From the NCBI RefSeq assembly GCF_008000775.2, contig NZ_CP042905.2, positions 2,820,001 to 2,852,000 on the forward strand: a DNA stretch of 32,000 nucleotides, read 5' to 3'. The notes beneath the pieces were generated by a model. The model was not told the origin of the DNA and ran no database searches. It worked only from the letters and a program-made list of their open reading frames with translations. Shown here piece by piece: positions 14,358-31,813 of the stretch. Positions within the stretch are counted from its first letter, which is position 1. Every line of letters begins with the position of its first letter. The translations under genes were made by a program, and so were the position numbers. The DNA is from Promethearchaeum syntrophicum (GTDB lineage: Archaea; Asgardarchaeota; Lokiarchaeia; Sigyniarchaeales; Promethearchaeaceae).

Positions 14358-14933
14358 CTAATCAAATTTTTTTTTCCATTCTTTTATCTTCTTAAGCAAA
14401 TCTAGAATGAATTCTTCTTTCTCCTTCTCCGAAAATTCAGAATCCGGCTTAATTTTTCGCTCAAATGATCCTAACTCAAATAAAATTTTATGCCCACCTG
14501 TCAAAACAAATAAATCTTCTTTGGCTTCTTTAATAACTTGACTTAATTCATGTAATGAAAGATTTTTTTTACTTATCTTCTCTTGACATAATTCTAAGAT
14601 TTGCTGTGGATTTTCAAAAGTTTTCTTGTTTGACATTGTTAATATGCCTTTTGAAGATAATTCTTCCAATTTGGAAGTCAGAATGTTTCCCATTGACTTT
14701 ACTTGTCCCATTTCAGCAAGAATTTCAGATTTAAACTTGTTTTCTTCTTGTAACTGATTTTTAAGGCTTTTAATGTTGATAATTTCTTTTTCAACCTTAT
14801 CAATTTTCTCAGTTAAGATATTTAATGTATGTTTCATTTCACCAATTGATTGGATCAATTCTAACCCAAATTTCTGCAGAATATTCCCAAAACTATCAAT
14901 TTTCTCTTCAAAAGTTTTTTGATTTTCTCCCAT
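14358..14933 (-). CDS. Coiled-coil protein divergent from the longin-GTPase gene
   Basis: 191-aa ORF. The N-terminal two-thirds are heptad-like (LNILTEKIDKVEKEIINIKSLKNQLQEENKFKSEILAEM) and there is a short globular C-terminus. The divergent intergenic region to 14999 is only 65 bp. Confidence 0.5.
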   Translation of the reverse strand: MGENQKTFEEKIDSFGNILQKFGLELIQSIGEMKHTLNILTEKIDKVEKEIINIKSLKNQLQEENKFKSEILAEMGQVKSMGNILTSKLEELSSKGILTMSNKKTFENPQQILELCQEKISKKNLSLHELSQVIKEAKEDLFVLTGGHKILFELGSFERKIKPDSEFSEKEKEEFILDLLKKIKEWKKKFD

Positions 14934-14998: not shown

Positions 14999-15868
14999 AT
15001 GATCAAACATGTGAACATCCTAACCCTTGATGGTAAATCCCTTCTTTTTCGTGAATACGGCGCAACTAAAGTTGATCAAGATTTATTGGCAGGATTCATG
15101 AGTGCATTTAGTGGATTTATGAAAGAAATCTCCCGATCTGAAATAAAATCAACAGTTACAGGTAATTCAAAATTTATTTATAGCTTTACAGATCAGATAA
15201 TGATAGTAATTTGTACAGATATTAAAGATAATGAAGAGGAGATATATCCAATTCTTGAGACAATTTTCTCCCAATTTTTAGAAAAATACAGTGATCTCTT
15301 TAAAAATAATAAATGGGATGGTGAACGGACCATTTTCAAAGAATTCAAAGAGAATGTTGATAAAATCGTGTTAGGACCAATAAAAGTTTCAATTTTAGGA
15401 TACGGTGGTGTTGGAAAAACCACTTTAACCAAACTAATTATCGGGGAAGAAATAAATTTAGAATATGTACCAACAATTACTGCAGATATTGCTACTTTTG
15501 ATAAAATGGGAAAACGCAGTATTGTGTTATGGGATTTTGCGGGCCAAATCCAGTTTACCGATTTATGGGACTCACTTTTAAAAGAAACCAGAATAGTTTT
15601 GTTGGTAACAGATTCATCGTATAAAAACGTTCAAGATACCAAAAAAATCATGGAGAAATTTATTGAAAAGGATTCCAATATGTTAATAATTGGAATAGCA
15701 AATAAACAAGATTTACAAAACAAATTATCAACGAAATTCGTTGAAAAGATTTTGAATGTTCCAACGTTCGGCATGATCGCGATAAATCCGAACTATAGGA
15801 TAATGATTCACGAAATTTTGAACGAATTCATTGAGAAGATTAATAAAATTGATGGATTCATTGATTAA
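14999..15868 (+). CDS. Longin/roadblock-like N-terminal domain fused to a Ras-superfamily small GTPase domain
   Basis: The N-terminus MIKHVNILTLDGKSLLFREYG...LLAGFMSAFSGFMKEIS...IMIVICTD has the alpha/beta regulatory-domain pattern. The G domain has G1 GYGGVGKTT, switch I YVPTITADI, G3 WDFAGQ and G4 NKQD. It is a paralog of 28052..29761. Confidence 0.85.
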   Translation: MIKHVNILTLDGKSLLFREYGATKVDQDLLAGFMSAFSGFMKEISRSEIKSTVTGNSKFIYSFTDQIMIVICTDIKDNEEEIYPILETIFSQFLEKYSDLFKNNKWDGERTIFKEFKENVDKIVLGPIKVSILGYGGVGKTTLTKLIIGEEINLEYVPTITADIATFDKMGKRSIVLWDFAGQIQFTDLWDSLLKETRIVLLVTDSSYKNVQDTKKIMEKFIEKDSNMLIIGIANKQDLQNKLSTKFVEKILNVPTFGMIAINPNYRIMIHEILNEFIEKINKIDGFID

Positions 15869-18920: not shown

Positions 18921-20397
18921 CAGTCTTCAAGGTTATAAACTCGACGACAAAAAACGTCCCTAAGTCTAATCTATGAAAACTATAGAAGATATAAAGGGGA
19001 AAGGAGAATATTTATATGATTATTTATGAATATTGCAAGGAGTCGTTCGATTCCCACATCGAAAACCCTTCCTTTCCCTAAAGATATATTTCTCCTAGGA
19101 GAATTTAAATCTTTGGTTAACAGTTTGGTCACTCGATTAGGAATCGCGAAAAGATTTAAGCCCAGGCTTTATTCATATGCAGATTTTGTGTTTGTTAAAT
19201 TTTATGCTCTAACAACTTCAATACCAATCGAAAGAGCTTCAGAACGCCTTAATAAATGGCTGATATTCCAATATTTCAAGAAATACAAGTTAAAACCAAA
19301 AAATTTTCAAGACGGAGTTCGTAAACGGCGCTTAGTACCACATCAAACCGATGTTGATAAATTTTTCAGATTGTTATCTGAAAAAGAAGTCAATATGTTG
19401 TTCGGAAATCTATTAATGAACGTTGTACTGAAGGTTAAAGCTAGATGTATCGGAGGATCAAAACTCAGATTCTTAGTTGACAACACTGAATATGCATATT
19501 ATGGCAAGCCCAACTCGCTTTTTGAAATTGGAACCAATCGAAAACCAGGAACTCGGTTCTGTCGCATGTTTCAAGGGCATGCACTTCACGGATCTGGAAT
19601 GACATTGTTTACTGATTTCTATTTACTTCAAAAAGGGAAATATCGTTGTCTTAACATCCCTCATTCGGTAGAATGGATAAGGTGGTCGGGAATTAATCTT
19701 TCCTATTCTCTCATGGATAGAGAATTTTACCGCGCCGCCTTAATCAAAGATCTTAAAACCTGTAAACTTCCAGTTCTTATTCCCGCGAAGAAATATCCCG
19801 GAATTAAAAGAAAAATCAAAGATTTCTTGCTCGGAATAGGTCCATTGGTATCAGTTTATCACTTTTCACAAACCCAAAAGGTAAAACCATGGCCGAGTTC
19901 GGTTCATGTGAATTTTGTCGTTATTGGCCATAAAAATGTATTAGCAACCGAAATACGGCGCCAATTCAGACAAGGTATTTTAACGTTCGATGAAGCAATA
20001 AAACAGTTAGCAGGGTTCTTTACAACTCTCAAACCTTGGAAAAATCATTCACGATGGGCTAAATGGCTTTCACGAGCATATAAAAAAAGATGGAATGAAG
20101 AGACGGGGTTCAGTAAGTTGAATGATATTCACAAAAGTTTCCGGAATCATTATCCGAATGTGCAATTATCTCAGCTCTATATGAGAGCAATAATTTATAA
20201 CAATTGGCAATATTTCAAAAGAGAAGCAGAAAAATCAGGAATTAAAGCCTCAAAGAGAACTTTAGCTGTGTTTTTAGAGATATTAGAATGGAGGATCTAT
20301 AATCTAATTGAACAATCAGTGAGTTATAATTTAAAATATTTACAGAAAAAAAGAAGGAGGTTATATTTTGAAAGTTAATTTATAACCTTAAAGACTG
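18921..20397 (+). mobile_element. Complete insertion sequence (IS4/IS5-superfamily DDE transposase), 1477 bp
   Basis: The 19-bp terminal inverted repeats are cagtcttcaaggttataaa (18921-18939) and tttataaccttaaagactg (20379-20397), matching 18 of 19 as reverse complements. They bracket a single transposase ORF. A flanking direct repeat aaaagaa occurs at 18914-18920 and 20398-20404. Confidence 0.8.
19026..20378 (+). CDS. DDE transposase (IS4/IS5-like, DDE_Tnp_1 type)
   Basis: The candidate catalytic triad context is LRFLVDNTEYAYYG (D), SLMDREFYRAAL (D) and YKKRWNEETGFSKL (the Y-x2-R-x3-E signature of IS4-type enzymes). Confidence 0.8.
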   Translation: MNIARSRSIPTSKTLPFPKDIFLLGEFKSLVNSLVTRLGIAKRFKPRLYSYADFVFVKFYALTTSIPIERASERLNKWLIFQYFKKYKLKPKNFQDGVRKRRLVPHQTDVDKFFRLLSEKEVNMLFGNLLMNVVLKVKARCIGGSKLRFLVDNTEYAYYGKPNSLFEIGTNRKPGTRFCRMFQGHALHGSGMTLFTDFYLLQKGKYRCLNIPHSVEWIRWSGINLSYSLMDREFYRAALIKDLKTCKLPVLIPAKKYPGIKRKIKDFLLGIGPLVSVYHFSQTQKVKPWPSSVHVNFVVIGHKNVLATEIRRQFRQGILTFDEAIKQLAGFFTTLKPWKNHSRWAKWLSRAYKKRWNEETGFSKLNDIHKSFRNHYPNVQLSQLYMRAIIYNNWQYFKREAEKSGIKASKRTLAVFLEILEWRIYNLIEQSVSYNLKYLQKKRRRLYFES

Positions 20398-28051: not shown

Positions 28052-29761
28052 TTATTTTATCTCTTTGAGTTCATCCAATTGATTTTCTAACCGAACTTTA
28101 ACAGAATTAAGGCGTTTAGTTTTTTCATCAAAAATTTCATCCGTTATTTCTCCTGTGATATTCTGCATTTCCAAATCAAGCAAGTTCTTGTTGACATTGG
28201 CAATCTTGATTTTTAAATCGGTTCTGACATTTTCCGCTGAAATAGGTGATTCTGATGATGTTGCTTGCGTTTTTTCTAATATTGGTTTTTCAGAAACTTT
28301 TGGATTTGACAAAGCATGAGTCTCGACTTTAGGGGTCTTGCTAGGTAATATTGATTTGGATACACCTACAGATGTTTGTGAAGCAGGGCTATTTGATTTG
28401 TTTGTTTTGGTTTGTAACTTCTTTAGCATTAATCCCAGTTGATCTAACTCTTGATTCGGAGGTGCGGGAGGTTTTTGAACTGGAGGTGTAGAAGGTTGTG
28501 GACCTGGAGGCATAGAAGGTTGTTGAACAGGTGGTTTAGTAGGTTGCTGAACGGGAGGCATAGGAGGTTGTTGAACAGGTGGTTTAGGAGGTTGTTGAAC
28601 AGGTGGTTTAGTAGGTTGCTGAACGGGAGGCATAGGAGGTTGTTCAACTGGAGGCATGGGAGGGGATTGAGCTGACGGCATAGGAGGTGCTTGTACAACA
28701 GGTTGTGAAACAGCAGGTTGAGATTTCTTTAAAATATTCCGAATCTTCTGAGCTTTCTCATGAAAATCTTGACTCACGCGATCATCCCCCAAATCTAAGC
28801 TCAAATCTGCAAGTTCTTCAAATATTGACATAGCTAATTCAAAATTACCATTTTCTAACGCTTCTTCAGCTTCAAGCATTTTTTTATCCCGATCAATTAA
28901 TGGTTTGAGGAGAGGTGAGATTTCACCCGACATCTCTAAAATATCACCGAGAATTGTTATCATTTTATCCCTATTTCCAGGATCTGTTGCAATCATAGAA
29001 TAACATTTCATGCTTAAATGACGCTCGATATCGATGATTGGCATCGCATCAGGTAAATCTTGTTTATTTCCAATAACTGCCGTATGAGCCATGGGAGCTT
29101 CTTTCTTAACTAATTCGATAAAATATTTACTTTTCTCACAATTTTCCAGGGTTGAATCTGTAATTAGGAGAACTGCATCAGATCCTTTAATAAAATTATT
29201 CCAGAGAAAACTAAACTGTTCTTGACCAGCAAAATCCCAAAGATGGAAATGTAATTTTCCAATTTTAATAGTTCCAATGTCTCCTGTAATTGTAGGAATA
29301 TGTTCTATAGGAATATCCTCTGCTGTGATAAGTCGTGTAATAGTTGTCTTCCCTACACCAGAGAAACCAATCAAAGAAATTTTAGGTCGCAAGTTTTTGT
29401 GGATTAATTCAATTGTTGGATCAAAAACTTCAAAGGTATCTTCATCCAGTTTTTCATCAAGTATCTCACCAAACATATCCATAAATTCCTTGCGACATTT
29501 CTGGAGTTCTTTTTTAACGCTATTAAATTTGTCGGAAAGGTCAGAAACAAAGAAGAAAATGGTGTTTTTGTTAGGAACTGAAAGATAAGTTATGCGATAT
29601 TTAAAATAGTCATGGTATTGGATACTTTCTGTAGTCAAATTGGAAGCTTCTTTCGAGATGTGTTTTAAAACTTGCTCGAATGCCTCTTCATCTAGAGCTT
29701 TTCCAAATTCACGATTATAAATGGATTCTCCATCAAGAGTTATAAAGACTTGTCGTAGCAT
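28052..29761 (-). CDS. Multidomain small GTPase: longin/roadblock-like domain, Ras-like G domain, helical region, proline-rich octapeptide repeats, C-terminal coiled coil
   Basis: MLRQVFITLDGESIYNREFG parallels the N-terminus of 14999..15868. G1 is GFSGVGKTT, switch I is HIPTITGDI, G3 is WDFAGQ and G4 is GNKQD. About ten PPxPPVQQ repeats follow, and then LLDLEMQNITGEITDEIFDEKTKRLNSVKVRLENQLDELKEIK. The ATG at 29761 is preferred over the TTG at 29776. Confidence 0.85.
   Translation of the reverse strand: MLRQVFITLDGESIYNREFGKALDEEAFEQVLKHISKEASNLTTESIQYHDYFKYRITYLSVPNKNTIFFFVSDLSDKFNSVKKELQKCRKEFMDMFGEILDEKLDEDTFEVFDPTIELIHKNLRPKISLIGFSGVGKTTITRLITAEDIPIEHIPTITGDIGTIKIGKLHFHLWDFAGQEQFSFLWNNFIKGSDAVLLITDSTLENCEKSKYFIELVKKEAPMAHTAVIGNKQDLPDAMPIIDIERHLSMKCYSMIATDPGNRDKMITILGDILEMSGEISPLLKPLIDRDKKMLEAEEALENGNFELAMSIFEELADLSLDLGDDRVSQDFHEKAQKIRNILKKSQPAVSQPVVQAPPMPSAQSPPMPPVEQPPMPPVQQPTKPPVQQPPKPPVQQPPMPPVQQPTKPPVQQPSMPPGPQPSTPPVQKPPAPPNQELDQLGLMLKKLQTKTNKSNSPASQTSVGVSKSILPSKTPKVETHALSNPKVSEKPILEKTQATSSESPISAENVRTDLKIKIANVNKNLLDLEMQNITGEITDEIFDEKTKRLNSVKVRLENQLDELKEIK
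28457..28723 (-). repeat. In-frame 24-bp (octapeptide PPxPPVQQ) tandem repeat region containing a 72-bp near-perfect internal duplication
   Basis: aggttgttgaacaggtggtttagtaggttgctgaacgggaggcataggaggttgtt occurs at 28517-28572 and again at 28589-28644 (offset 72 bp). The whole region is built from ggagg/ggtgg-ttg units and is locally GC-rich. Confidence 0.85.
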
Positions 29762-29864
29762 TAATGATTTCCTCAAAATTTGTTTATTGTAGCAAAATTT
29801 CTATAATAAATACATGTTTAGTTATCCTAAAAAATTTGAGATAATAACATTAGTTTGGAATTTT

Positions 29865-30380
29865 CTATTTTTTTGACATATAGCGGATTAATTTTTTAAA
29901 AACTGGTAATCGATCTCTTTCCATTTCAATCTCACTTTCTTTAATTAATTTATCGTATTCTTTTTGTAACTTTATTTTAGAAAATTCCGGTTTAGTTCCC
30001 TTTTCTGAGGATTTATCTAAAGTTAAAATTATCCGATTAATGCTTGGAAGATATTGGTTCAGATCTACGGTTTTCTGTACTTTACTCATGAAATATACAT
30101 TTTCTCCGAAGGTAAATATAATATTCTCTCGATCTGATTCTAAAATTAAATTATGGATGTCTTGAGTTTCTAATTCCGAGACGAGTTTCTCTCTTTTTAA
30201 AATCAATTCCCATAAAACTGGAGAGATCAGTTTACCAGGAGTTAATTTTGGGATTTTTGAAGCAAGCACTATACCATATTTATTGATGATAGCTGTATCA
30301 GTACCGATCATTTCGAAAATTTGGTCAACCACTCCATCCCAATTTATTTTATTGTCTGTATTTGGTGGATTTGCACTCAT
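29865..30380 (-). CDS. Roadblock/LC7 (MglB-like) domain protein, first gene of the GTPase operon
   Basis: VVDQIFEMIGTDTAIINKYGIVLASKIP...IHNLILESDRENIIFTFGENVYFMSKV follows the Roadblock/LC7 pattern (alpha, then a beta-hairpin 'G..gA.i.d.dG..lA', then beta-beta-alpha). It is co-directional with the GTPase gene and 103 nt upstream of it. Confidence 0.6.
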   Translation of the reverse strand: MSANPPNTDNKINWDGVVDQIFEMIGTDTAIINKYGIVLASKIPKLTPGKLISPVLWELILKREKLVSELETQDIHNLILESDRENIIFTFGENVYFMSKVQKTVDLNQYLPSINRIILTLDKSSEKGTKPEFSKIKLQKEYDKLIKESEIEMERDRLPVFKKLIRYMSKK

Positions 30381-30676: not shown

Positions 30677-31813
30677 ATGGGTGATAAAGACTTAGAGAAT
30701 ATTATCTCGAATATTGGACAGGAAGAATTGGCAGTAGCTCAAAAACAGGCTCAAATTGATAGACTTAAACAGCTGATCGTTAAGCAAAAAAATGAGATGG
30801 CAGAACAGCAAAAAATTATCAAAGATTTAAATAATCGCATTCATAATATGTATGATTTACCCGCCGATGTTGAAGAATTAAAAAGAATGGTAGGTGAAAT
30901 GCGTGCAGAAATCAATGATAAGGACTCACAACTTCAAATGGCATATGGAACTGTTGCAGAGCATGAAGCTGAACTGAGAAATCTAAGATTACAGATGGAT
31001 CCACTATCCAAAAATTTAGAGACTTATATTACTCAAGTCGGTGAAATAAAAGCAAAATTGGCAGAGCAAGAAGGCTTGTTAATGCTAAAAGAGAAAGATA
31101 TTCATGAATTAAAAACTAATTTAAGCAATAAACAGATGAATTTCGATAACATGGAAGAAGAATTTGCTAAAAAAGTTCAAGAACGACTAAAAGAATTCAT
31201 GGAAATCGAAGATAATTATCAAAAAAAAATTACAGAGATGCAGGAAGAACTACGCGAAAAAAGTATGACCTCCGACGAAGCACGTGTTAAAATTAAGGCA
31301 GAACTCCAAGAAGATGCTTTAAAAAATCAAACAGAATTTATGGATAAAATCAGAAAATTAGAATCCCAAGTAATGGATAAGGAAATTGAATCCAAAGAAG
31401 CGAAGCAAAAACTGGAAAACTCATTAAATCAAGTACAAGACATCAAACTAAAATTAGATACTCAAGTTGAAAAATATAATCAACTGCAAAAAGAATATTC
31501 TGTAATTAAGGATGAAATGGATACACGTGATGAATTTTATGCCGATTTAAAAGAATTTAAAGAACAGAATTTAGGTGTTTCATCAAATTTTTCCCGATTA
31601 ATGACTCTATTCGAACATGAACCACTCTTTAAAGCTTTTCTCTTAGTAAATGATGTTGGTGAAATGAATGTTGAAGATCTAAAAAATTCGTTGGGTGTGC
31701 CGAGTATAACTACAAAAAAATATGTCGATCAATTTATTAAAGCTGATTTATTTGTGTTAACCGATTCGGGCAAATTGTCACTTAAATATCCGATAAAGGT
31801 GAAGAAAAAGTAA
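30677..31813 (+). CDS. Long coiled-coil protein with a C-terminal winged-helix-like domain
   Basis: About 290 aa are heptad-rich (QKQAQIDRLKQLIVKQKNEMAEQQKIIKDLNNRI...). The C-terminus is MNVEDLKNSLGVPSITTKKYVDQFIKADLFVLTDSGKLSL, a wHTH-like pattern. An AAGAGG motif lies upstream of the ATG. Confidence 0.6.
   Translation: MGDKDLENIISNIGQEELAVAQKQAQIDRLKQLIVKQKNEMAEQQKIIKDLNNRIHNMYDLPADVEELKRMVGEMRAEINDKDSQLQMAYGTVAEHEAELRNLRLQMDPLSKNLETYITQVGEIKAKLAEQEGLLMLKEKDIHELKTNLSNKQMNFDNMEEEFAKKVQERLKEFMEIEDNYQKKITEMQEELREKSMTSDEARVKIKAELQEDALKNQTEFMDKIRKLESQVMDKEIESKEAKQKLENSLNQVQDIKLKLDTQVEKYNQLQKEYSVIKDEMDTRDEFYADLKEFKEQNLGVSSNFSRLMTLFEHEPLFKAFLLVNDVGEMNVEDLKNSLGVPSITTKKYVDQFIKADLFVLTDSGKLSLKYPIKVKKK

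Follow-up and report, generated by a model that had tools for sequence, protein, structure and literature searches.

Dimers built from Roadblock and longin domains are established platforms, GTPase-activating proteins (GAPs) or guanine nucleotide exchange factors (GEFs) of small GTPases (PMC10933270). In Asgard archaea, small GTPases number in the dozens, as do Roadblock and longin proteins, and the expansion of these three groups, mentioned in a preliminary description of the DNA treated here, is indeed documented in the literature. Which regulator serves which GTPase is not usually readable from the genome, as Tran et al. (2024) state explicitly for Promethearchaeum syntrophicum MK-D1, an Asgard archaeon available in culture. 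The present analysis is centred on a window of 32,000 nucleotides (nt) from this organism (contig NZ_CP042905.2, positions 2,820,001 to 2,852,000; G+C around 30%), and in particular on two neighbouring genes encoding a Roadblock-fold protein of 171 residues and a GTPase of 569 residues that opens with a longin domain. The longin-GTPase/Roadblock family to which they belong is an exception to that rule, being a near-obligate one-to-one gene pair with predictable cognate partners. On balance, the two genes probably represent a dedicated GTPase/regulator pair of the MglA-MglB or Rag-Ragulator type, a reading held here with moderate confidence.

Related proteins have been the subject of several studies. 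An AlphaFold2 survey of all 74 MK-D1 small GTPases described longin or Roadblock domains fused to these GTPases ('LG', 'LGX', 'LGR'), and its Supplementary Fig. 6 lists WP_147664160.1, the GTPase of the present pair, as 'LGX' within the Rag-like/Arf-like structural class; according to the same survey, an MK-D1 GTPase gene does not as a rule share its operon with a Roadblock or longin gene (Tran et al. 2024). 'Rag family GTPases with fused longin' have been reported in Asgard archaea (Liu et al. 2020/2021), and longin N-termini occur among Asgard Arf-like proteins (Zhu et al. 2025). Besides, Liu et al. described a conserved Asgard operon consisting of a LAMTOR1-like Roadblock gene, a Rab-like GTPase gene and a DENN gene, which was proposed to be a GEF/GAP module. 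The LGX architecture and the Asgard longin-GTPase fusions are already known; the strict pairing with a Roadblock gene, of which no report was found, is what is new here. No paper naming the accessions of the pair or describing the gene pair was found, the GTPase itself appearing in the supplement of Tran et al., and the linked Roadblock gene, the C-terminal element, the helical hairpin behind the G domain (post-G hairpin) and the family-wide distribution are not described in the text and one supplement of that study or in Liu et al. The preliminary description had not recognised the protein as characterised, which holds for its function; its architecture is listed as LGX, and both longin-GTPase fusions and Roadblock-GTPase operons have been described.

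The gene pair and its conservation

The two genes and the spacer between them comprise the following features, with coordinates of the window:

29865..30380, minus strand: gene of the Roadblock-fold protein, 171 residues (from the list of open reading frames, ORFs)
28052..29761, minus strand: gene of the longin/Arf-like GTPase with its tail ('LGX'), 569 residues, stop codon included
29762..29864, minus strand: spacer between the two genes, 103 nt (from the sequence)
29829..29834, minus strand: T6 run in the spacer, conserved in three Promethearchaeum genomes
29802..29810, minus strand: TATA-like TTTATTATA in the spacer, conserved in three Promethearchaeum genomes
29771..29774, minus strand: GAGG in the spacer, 9 nt before the GTPase ATG

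Both ORFs had been placed correctly in the preliminary description, and their products are 100% identical to MK-D1 proteins. The shorter one is WP_147664161.1 (DSAG12_03093), annotated as a hypothetical protein and named 'Roadblock/LAMTOR2 domain-containing' in UniRef, and the longer one is WP_147664160.1, annotated as 'ADP-ribosylation factor-like protein'. The ORF of the latter (28052..29776, minus strand) opens at a TTG at 29776, which gives 574 residues; the ATG at 29761 gives 569. This ATG is the likely start codon, since orthologues begin with M/I-LRQV and the GAGG stands 9 nt upstream of it.

More than 1,100 relatives of the GTPase are present in the protein collection. A pattern scan covering one genome per GTDB species detected a relative in 281 genomes, the family being thus present in at least 281 species-level genomes, including P. 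syntrophicum and L. ossiferum, the two Lokiarchaeia in culture; the pairing was counted in the best 80 loci. A Roadblock ORF, recognised with a hidden Markov model (HMM) of the Roadblock family, lies directly upstream and on the same strand in 76 of these 80 loci, that is, in 76 of the 78 that can be assessed. Two of the four unpaired loci have no upstream DNA, another is a second copy in a metagenome-assembled genome (MAG) whose other copy is paired, and the last is a tandem duplication of the GTPase gene (L072, 1114..4881), in which a decayed Roadblock remnant containing stop codons is found between the copies, just upstream of the second one. Where the other neighbours differ, as in L. ossiferum (NEF87_000730/000729), in Harpocratesius and in MAGs further removed, the pair is kept, and three reciprocal look-ups started from distant Roadblock members found a long GTPase downstream in all three cases. 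Conservation of the pair in related genomes, on which the preliminary description had staked its proposal, is borne out by these counts and look-ups.

For the phylum-level distribution, no use was made of the labels Hod-, Hermod-, Odin- and Thor-archaeota carried by some MAGs, because the loci so labelled are near-identical to loci of Promethearchaeota MAGs. Among the MAGs labelled Hodarchaeota, Odinarchaeota or Hermodarchaeota, this is the case of L018, L022, L024, L027, L030, L036 and others, and their labels look unreliable.

From the Roadblock stop codon to the codon that matches Met1 of the GTPase in the alignment, the median distance is 40 nt, and most orthologous spacers, of about this length, carry only a Shine-Dalgarno-like GGTGA motif. 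The codon aligned with Met1 (29761..29759 in the window) is ATT, ATA or ATC in 60 of the 76 loci (40, 16 and 4 loci, respectively; L013-L083). GGTGA is conserved 5-6 nt upstream of this codon, the TGA within it being an in-frame stop, and the peptide ILRQVYIY.. is conserved in orthologues upstream of the first canonical start codon. These features point to non-AUG initiation, and most GTPase orthologues appear to start at AUU, AUA or AUC behind a strong Shine-Dalgarno motif. Related to this, the database gene calls of those orthologues are truncated at the N-terminus, with the P-loop at residue 97, 120 or 128 compared with 132 here. The arrangement hints, as a reading of low probability, that translation of the GTPase is controlled with respect to that of the Roadblock protein in a conserved manner.

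Folds and motifs of the two proteins

Pfam membership of the 171-residue protein in Robl_LC7 (PF03259) lies below threshold (E=0.085, 13 bits against a cut-off of 23 bits), and with NCBIfam, as with Pfam, the Roadblock and longin domains of the pair both remain below threshold. In the AlphaFold2 model, residues 14-125 form a Roadblock core with a predicted local distance difference test (pLDDT) above 90 over residues 11-120 and the topology a-b-b-a-b-b-b-a (H14-25, E28-33, E37-41, H54-70, E77-81, E85-91, E95-102, H107-125). The top 30 Foldseek matches of this model in the PDB are all Roadblock or MglB structures (E around 1e-5; target-normalised TM-score, TMt, up to 0.78). MK-D1 Roadblock3 (9jue), MK-D1 Roadblock (7yh1) and a Thor Roadblock (7f8m) are matched, and so are MglB of Thermus and Myxococcus, LAMTOR2 and dynein LC7. 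The model, which can be superposed on solved Roadblock structures, confirms the Roadblock fold put forward in the preliminary description. When 57 members of the family are combined in a profile and compared with the PDB, 7yh1 (E=8.9e-4) and 9jue (E=0.038) are also found. The family comprises at least 482 clusters and has a uniform length of 161-177 residues. Behind the core, an extra C-terminal helix (residues 139-170) is modelled with low confidence (pLDDT 46-76). The last dozen residues of the protein, VFKKLIRYMSKK, are basic and strongly amphipathic (the C-terminal 11-mer has a hydrophobic moment, muH, of 0.84 and a charge of +4), and the C-terminus of the family has an invariant Lys162 and a Leu164 kept in 90% or more of the members.

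The GTPase begins with two folded domains:

29390..29761, minus strand: longin domain, residues 1-124 (AlphaFold2 and Foldseek)
28916..29389, minus strand: Arf-like G domain, residues 125-282 (P-loop GFSGVGKT 132-139, switch I Thr157/159, WDFAGQ 175-180, NKQD 232-235)

Pfam sees only the G domain in this protein and gives no match, longin included, in its first 126 residues. The AlphaFold2 model of the N-terminus, built with 46 homologues, has a pLDDT of 91.7, a predicted TM-score (pTM) of 0.86 and the topology b-b-a-b-b-b-a-a. Its first Foldseek matches in the PDB are the longin domain of VAMP7 (query-normalised TM-score, TMq, 0.79), Sec22b, Ykt6, AP sigma subunits, SEDL and TRAPP, and Roadblock proteins rank lower than these longin folds. 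The domain, initially described as longin/roadblock-like, is by this model confirmed as a longin fold. It was found in 92 clusters (50% identity) in a HMMER scan of 1.84 billion representatives, and it is N-terminal in all of them. Its Arg56 is nearly invariant, and any equivalence of this residue to the Arg finger of a GAP would be conjectural.

Longin domains of FLCN-FNIP, GATOR1 Nprl2-Nprl3 and C9orf72-SMCR8 act on Rag or Arf GTPases, and a GP motif in the b1-b2 loop marks the longin-type GAPs (PMC12290439). Chains of FLCN-FNIP, GATOR1 and C9orf72-SMCR8 are not among the top 50 Foldseek matches of the longin model. An identity of the GTPase longin as a longin-type GAP (FLCN/Nprl2/SMCR8 class) was considered and discarded, the GP motif being absent.

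The Ras-like G domain with its P-loop, WDFAGQ and NKQD had been correctly seen from the outset, and both Pfam and a PDB sequence search place it as Arf/Ras-like. Over residues 128-257, Pfam gives Arf with E=1.7e-18 (67.1 bits against a cut-off of 22.3) and also Roc and Ras, and the closest solved relatives are Arf1, Arf6, Arl8 and Arl5 (E around 1e-14). The P-loop, DxxGQ and NKQD are present in all 120 best homologues, with one GYSGVGKT and one WDNAGQ as the only variants. The domain keeps the switch-II Gln180 and is without a switch-I Arg. By its Arf profile, its G1, G3 and G4 motifs and its switch-II Gln, it is classified from sequence as Arf-like. The defining feature of Arf is an N-terminal amphipathic helix coupled to the interswitch toggle (10.1101/2024.02.28.582541). 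The 569-residue GTPase opens instead with a longin domain of 124 residues, in which a b-strand starts from residue 2, and its G3 motif is WDFAGQ, not WDVGGQ; it is Arf-like and not a bona fide Arf. As for the Rag/Gtr family, the Pfam profile Gtr1_RagA reaches 21.1 bits on the G domain, just under its cut-off of 22, and the G domain is followed by a hairpin, a disordered linker and a helical element, with no Roadblock domain.

Conservation differs between the parts of the GTPase, as column identities computed per 10-residue window on 79 full-length homologues indicate. They range from 0.43 to 0.79 in the longin domain and from 0.64 to 0.98 in the G domain, where the P-loop, the two switches and the interswitch reach around 0.9 or higher. 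Such high values in the G domain, both switches included, suggest several constrained binding surfaces.

Proposed regulation or anchoring, and the tail

The favoured reading is that of a dedicated regulator. The Roadblock protein would bind the longin-Arf-like GTPase, forming a dimer with itself or a two-lobed platform with the cis longin, and would in both arrangements pack onto the switch face of the G domain and control which nucleotide state it adopts. An MglB-like role as GAP or co-GAP is the most likely one by analogy, because the G domain keeps its switch-II Gln and is without the switch-I Arg. The candidate roles are those of a positioning (MglB-like) GAP, a GEF and an anchor, and among them control over the nucleotide state is preferred. 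With its basic and amphipathic character, the C-terminal helix of the Roadblock protein may serve as a membrane anchor or as a helix for allosteric docking. Beside the folds, motifs, domain order, conservation profile and gene linkage observed here, analogy with the described systems would predict physical binding, GAP or GEF activity, membrane association and oligomerisation.

Several points weigh against this reading. No invariant Arg was found in the alignment of the Roadblock family, which makes a classical arginine-finger GAP unlikely. In orthologues, the b1-b2 loop of the longin domain (LDGE, K.G.E or K/D-G-x-E) has no Pro, and the GP motif of GAP longins is missing from it. MK-D1 longin-GTPases are predicted to homodimerise via their longin domains (Tran et al.), and a longin-longin homodimer competes with a Roadblock-longin heterodimer. 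Part of the adjacency of the genes is a matter of shared ancestry or synteny. Finally, in the spacer of MK-D1 itself, which is 103 nt long, the T6 run may be a terminator and the TATA-like box an internal promoter, and co-transcription is not assured. The two-gene operon of the preliminary description is likely for the family, where the linkage and the gap of around 40 nt are kept, and unproven for MK-D1.

A second explanation, possible and yet clearly less probable, is that the Roadblock protein is a Ragulator-like adaptor or anchor and not a nucleotide regulator. It would pair with the longin domain and hold the GTPase on a membrane or other structure via its C-terminal helix, the nucleotide state being set by unlinked factors or by the cis longin. 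The end of that helix, with its amphipathic character, its charge and its invariant Lys162 and nearly invariant Leu164, fits this explanation, and so does the GTPase, in which no N-terminal amphipathic helix, transmembrane segment or lipidation motif of its own was found. The lack of a conserved Arg in the Roadblock family points the same way, and in Ragulator, in the C-terminal domains of Rags and in TRAPP like regularly pairs with like, Roadblock with Roadblock and longin with longin (PMC10933270). On the other side stand the low confidence with which the C-terminal helix is modelled and the presence of MglB, a GAP, among the closest structural matches.

It is improbable that the adjacency is simply inherited synteny without direct coupling, the Roadblock protein serving other GTPases or complexes. 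Flanking genes, too, recur across the 80 loci (64 have an AbpE-like gene and 51 aspartate kinase), the MK-D1 spacer possibly contains an internal promoter, and the general absence of MK-D1 GTPase genes from Roadblock or longin operons in the survey of Tran et al. agrees with such an origin. However, the pair is retained where the flanks have been replaced (window compared with L003 and L085), the gap is tight and carries its Shine-Dalgarno-like motif, the look-ups made from the Roadblock side lead to a long GTPase, and even the decayed Roadblock remnant of the tandem duplication stands just upstream of the second GTPase copy.

Behind the G domain, the GTPase continues with a long tail:

28724..28915, minus strand: post-G helical hairpin, residues 283-346 (SPLLKPL..RD..A..LGDD..F), defined by conservation
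28454..28714, minus strand: proline-rich tandem repeats, residues 350-436, around 10 units of PPMPPVQQ type, defined with Tandem Repeats Finder (TRF)
28412..28450, minus strand: conserved island in the disordered linker, residues 438-450 (ELDQLGLMLKKLQ), leucine-rich and not proline-rich
28232..28411, minus strand: Ser/Thr/Lys/Pro-rich linker, residues 451-510, defined by composition, of low conservation
28055..28231, minus strand: C-terminal helix-Gly-helix element, residues 511-569 (DLKIK.AN..K..LDLEM.NI.GEI(S/T).E.F..K..RL...QI..L), defined by conservation

The helical segment of the preliminary description forms a hairpin under strong conservation; 14 of its columns do not vary among 20 diverse sequences, and its column identity is 0.63-0.87. 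For the likeness to TPR or MIT domains that had been seen there by eye, the searches gave only weak matches, which are Pfam TPR_8 (E=0.16) and, for the family profile against the PDB, designed helical repeats (5e-4 to 3e-3), the TPR of DnaJC3 (0.027) and the MIT of calpain-7 (0.27).

The C-terminal element is present in nearly all full-length homologues, its Gly and a Lys being invariant. The terminal coiled coil first described corresponds to conserved heptads, but these form two short stretches split by the invariant Gly, and the element is better described as a helix-turn-helix than as one long coiled coil. In isolation, it matches the Pfam CdvA-like coiled coil (PF18822) with E=5.9e-4 and 20.3 bits, under the 30-bit cut-off, and 19 of 30 diverse members match this profile at E<0.01 (best E 2.4e-6, model positions around 50-104), a similarity to be read with the proneness of coiled-coil profiles to chance matches in mind. 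Other Pfam matches of these elements are GvpG in 5 of the 30 members and SHOCT in 1; an assignment of the GEI(S/T)xEEF motif to SHOCT was rejected, as this single match has E=0.0016. A profile of the element compared with the PDB gave only coiled-coil matches at chance level.

The part of the GTPase behind the G domain would act as an output or tethering arm, made of a packed hairpin, a proline-rich disordered spacer and the C-terminal element. The CdvA-like element would oligomerise or plug into another assembly, and the tail as a whole would position the switch, or bring about its oligomerisation, from a distance.

The ten or so eight-residue proline repeats reported earlier do exist, and TRF describes them at 28467..28663 as a tandem array with a period of 24 nt, 8.2 copies and 79% matches. 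Their sequence is not conserved among orthologues, the unit being PPMPPVQQ in MK-D1, PPAPSVQV in L. ossiferum and TPPPAPKTSV in Harpocratesius. In 97 homologues, the linker from the hairpin to the C-terminal element has 64-387 residues (median 247), with 12-36% Pro and few hydrophobic residues. Its column identity is 0.18-0.41 outside the island, which is the sole conserved piece of the linker (occupancy 0.97; identity 0.50 over residues 441-450), has the counterpart L(N/R)PEDFMVK.RPK..VVPKDAK in the other clade, and is a candidate short linear binding motif. As the linker is unconserved and its only conserved island is not proline-rich, the proline repeats look like a fast-evolving, lineage-specific and extensible spacer and not like a specific docking track. 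The polyproline track for a proline-binding partner, as proposed in the preliminary description, is not supported, and the eye-catching repeats probably tell less about the GTPase than any of its other parts.

Quite improbable, for this reason, is the idea that the repeats are the functional core and that, depending on GTP, they recruit a partner resembling profilin, SH3 or WW proteins. Asgard archaea encode profilins, and the Pro enrichment of the linker is itself conserved in all 97 homologues; but the repeat unit, the copy number and the length differ even between close lineages, the array is young at the DNA level, and what little identity the linker keeps lies mainly in the island. Least probable of all is a self-contained Asgard tethering and polarity switch, in which the Roadblock/longin part would gate the Arf-like G domain and the spacer, with a C-terminal hairpin resembling CdvA and the Vps23 steadiness box, would plug into an ESCRT- or CdvA-type assembly; if true, it would be a prokaryotic precedent for the GTPase-controlled recruitment of membrane-remodelling machinery.

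As a near-obligate gene pair, the two proteins offer an expressible handle on the role of an Asgard Roadblock protein (GAP, GEF or anchor), on the contribution of the cis longin and on the connections of the tail.

Neighbouring genes and comparison with known systems

Two further genes of the window are related to the pair by position or by sequence:

30677..31813, plus strand: 378-residue coiled-coil protein WP_147664162.1, divergent, with coiled-coil-type matches only
14999..15868, plus strand: 289-residue paralogue with longin and Arf-like G domain and no tail, 32% identical over longin plus G

The 378-residue protein adjoins the pair in 9 of the 80 loci, which belong to the closest lineages only (Promethearchaeum, Lokiarchaeum, Harpocratesius and a few MAGs), and it has sometimes moved downstream; L001, L002 and L085 are among the loci where it is a neighbour. 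A winged helix guessed by eye at its C-terminus was not retained, these 90 or so residues having no significant Pfam or PDB sequence match. The 289-residue paralogue is probably WP_147664152.1, an 'LG' protein of Tran et al., and no Roadblock neighbour was found for it. The 191-residue ORF beside it (14358..14933, minus strand) was considered as a second Roadblock partner and rejected (nothing by BLASTP, E=0.013 with the Roadblock HMM, a probability of 1.9% by hhalign). A 450-residue ORF (19026..20378, plus strand) that carries a domain of DDE transposases (Pfam DDE_Tnp_1, E=1.6e-5) sits between the two longin-GTPase genes of the window.

Regarding the systems with which the pair can be compared, one likeness concerns the tail. 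A preprint relates the CdvA-like domain class to the steadiness box of ESCRT-I (10.1101/2023.07.25.550441). The CdvA coiled coil and the Vps23 steadiness box have a helix-loop-helix layout, and so does the C-terminal element, with its invariant Gly; the protein has neither a PRC barrel nor an ESCRT-III-binding peptide, and its element stays below threshold. In the signal recognition particle (SRP) receptor, SR-beta, a GTPase of the Arf family, is contacted at its switch face by a longin-type fold, the SRX domain of SR-alpha. Here the longin fold is fused to the Arf-like G domain, there is no transmembrane anchor and no SRP-receptor context, and SRX is not among the top 50 Foldseek matches of the longin model.

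With the operon described by Liu et al., the pair shares a conserved Asgard neighbourhood that joins a Roadblock-superfamily protein to a small GTPase. The GTPase is Rab-like there and Arf-like with a cis longin here, DENN is absent, and the Roadblock family is a different one, below the Pfam threshold. The combination of an Arf/Rag-like G domain with dimeric platform domains of the Roadblock superfamily is common to Rag/Gtr with Ragulator/EGO (LAMTOR2/3, Ego3) and to the present pair, and LAMTOR and Ego3 chains are among the fold matches of both the Roadblock and the longin models. Rags carry a C-terminal Roadblock domain and form a heterodimer with a second Rag, whereas here the longin is N-terminal and the Roadblock protein is encoded by a separate gene.

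MglA-MglB of Myxococcus xanthus and Thermus thermophilus is likewise close. In comparison with MglA, the G domain is Arf-like and without the switch-I Arg of MglA, a cis longin and a tail of around 290 residues are added, and a GAP role for the partner would follow from analogy. A helix extension at the C-terminus of MglB is functional, and the 171-residue protein likewise ends with an additional helix. Structures of MglB are among the best structural matches of this protein, which, in the manner of MglB, is encoded next to its putative cognate GTPase, so that in both systems a small GTPase of the Ras superfamily and a Roadblock-fold protein are encoded side by side.

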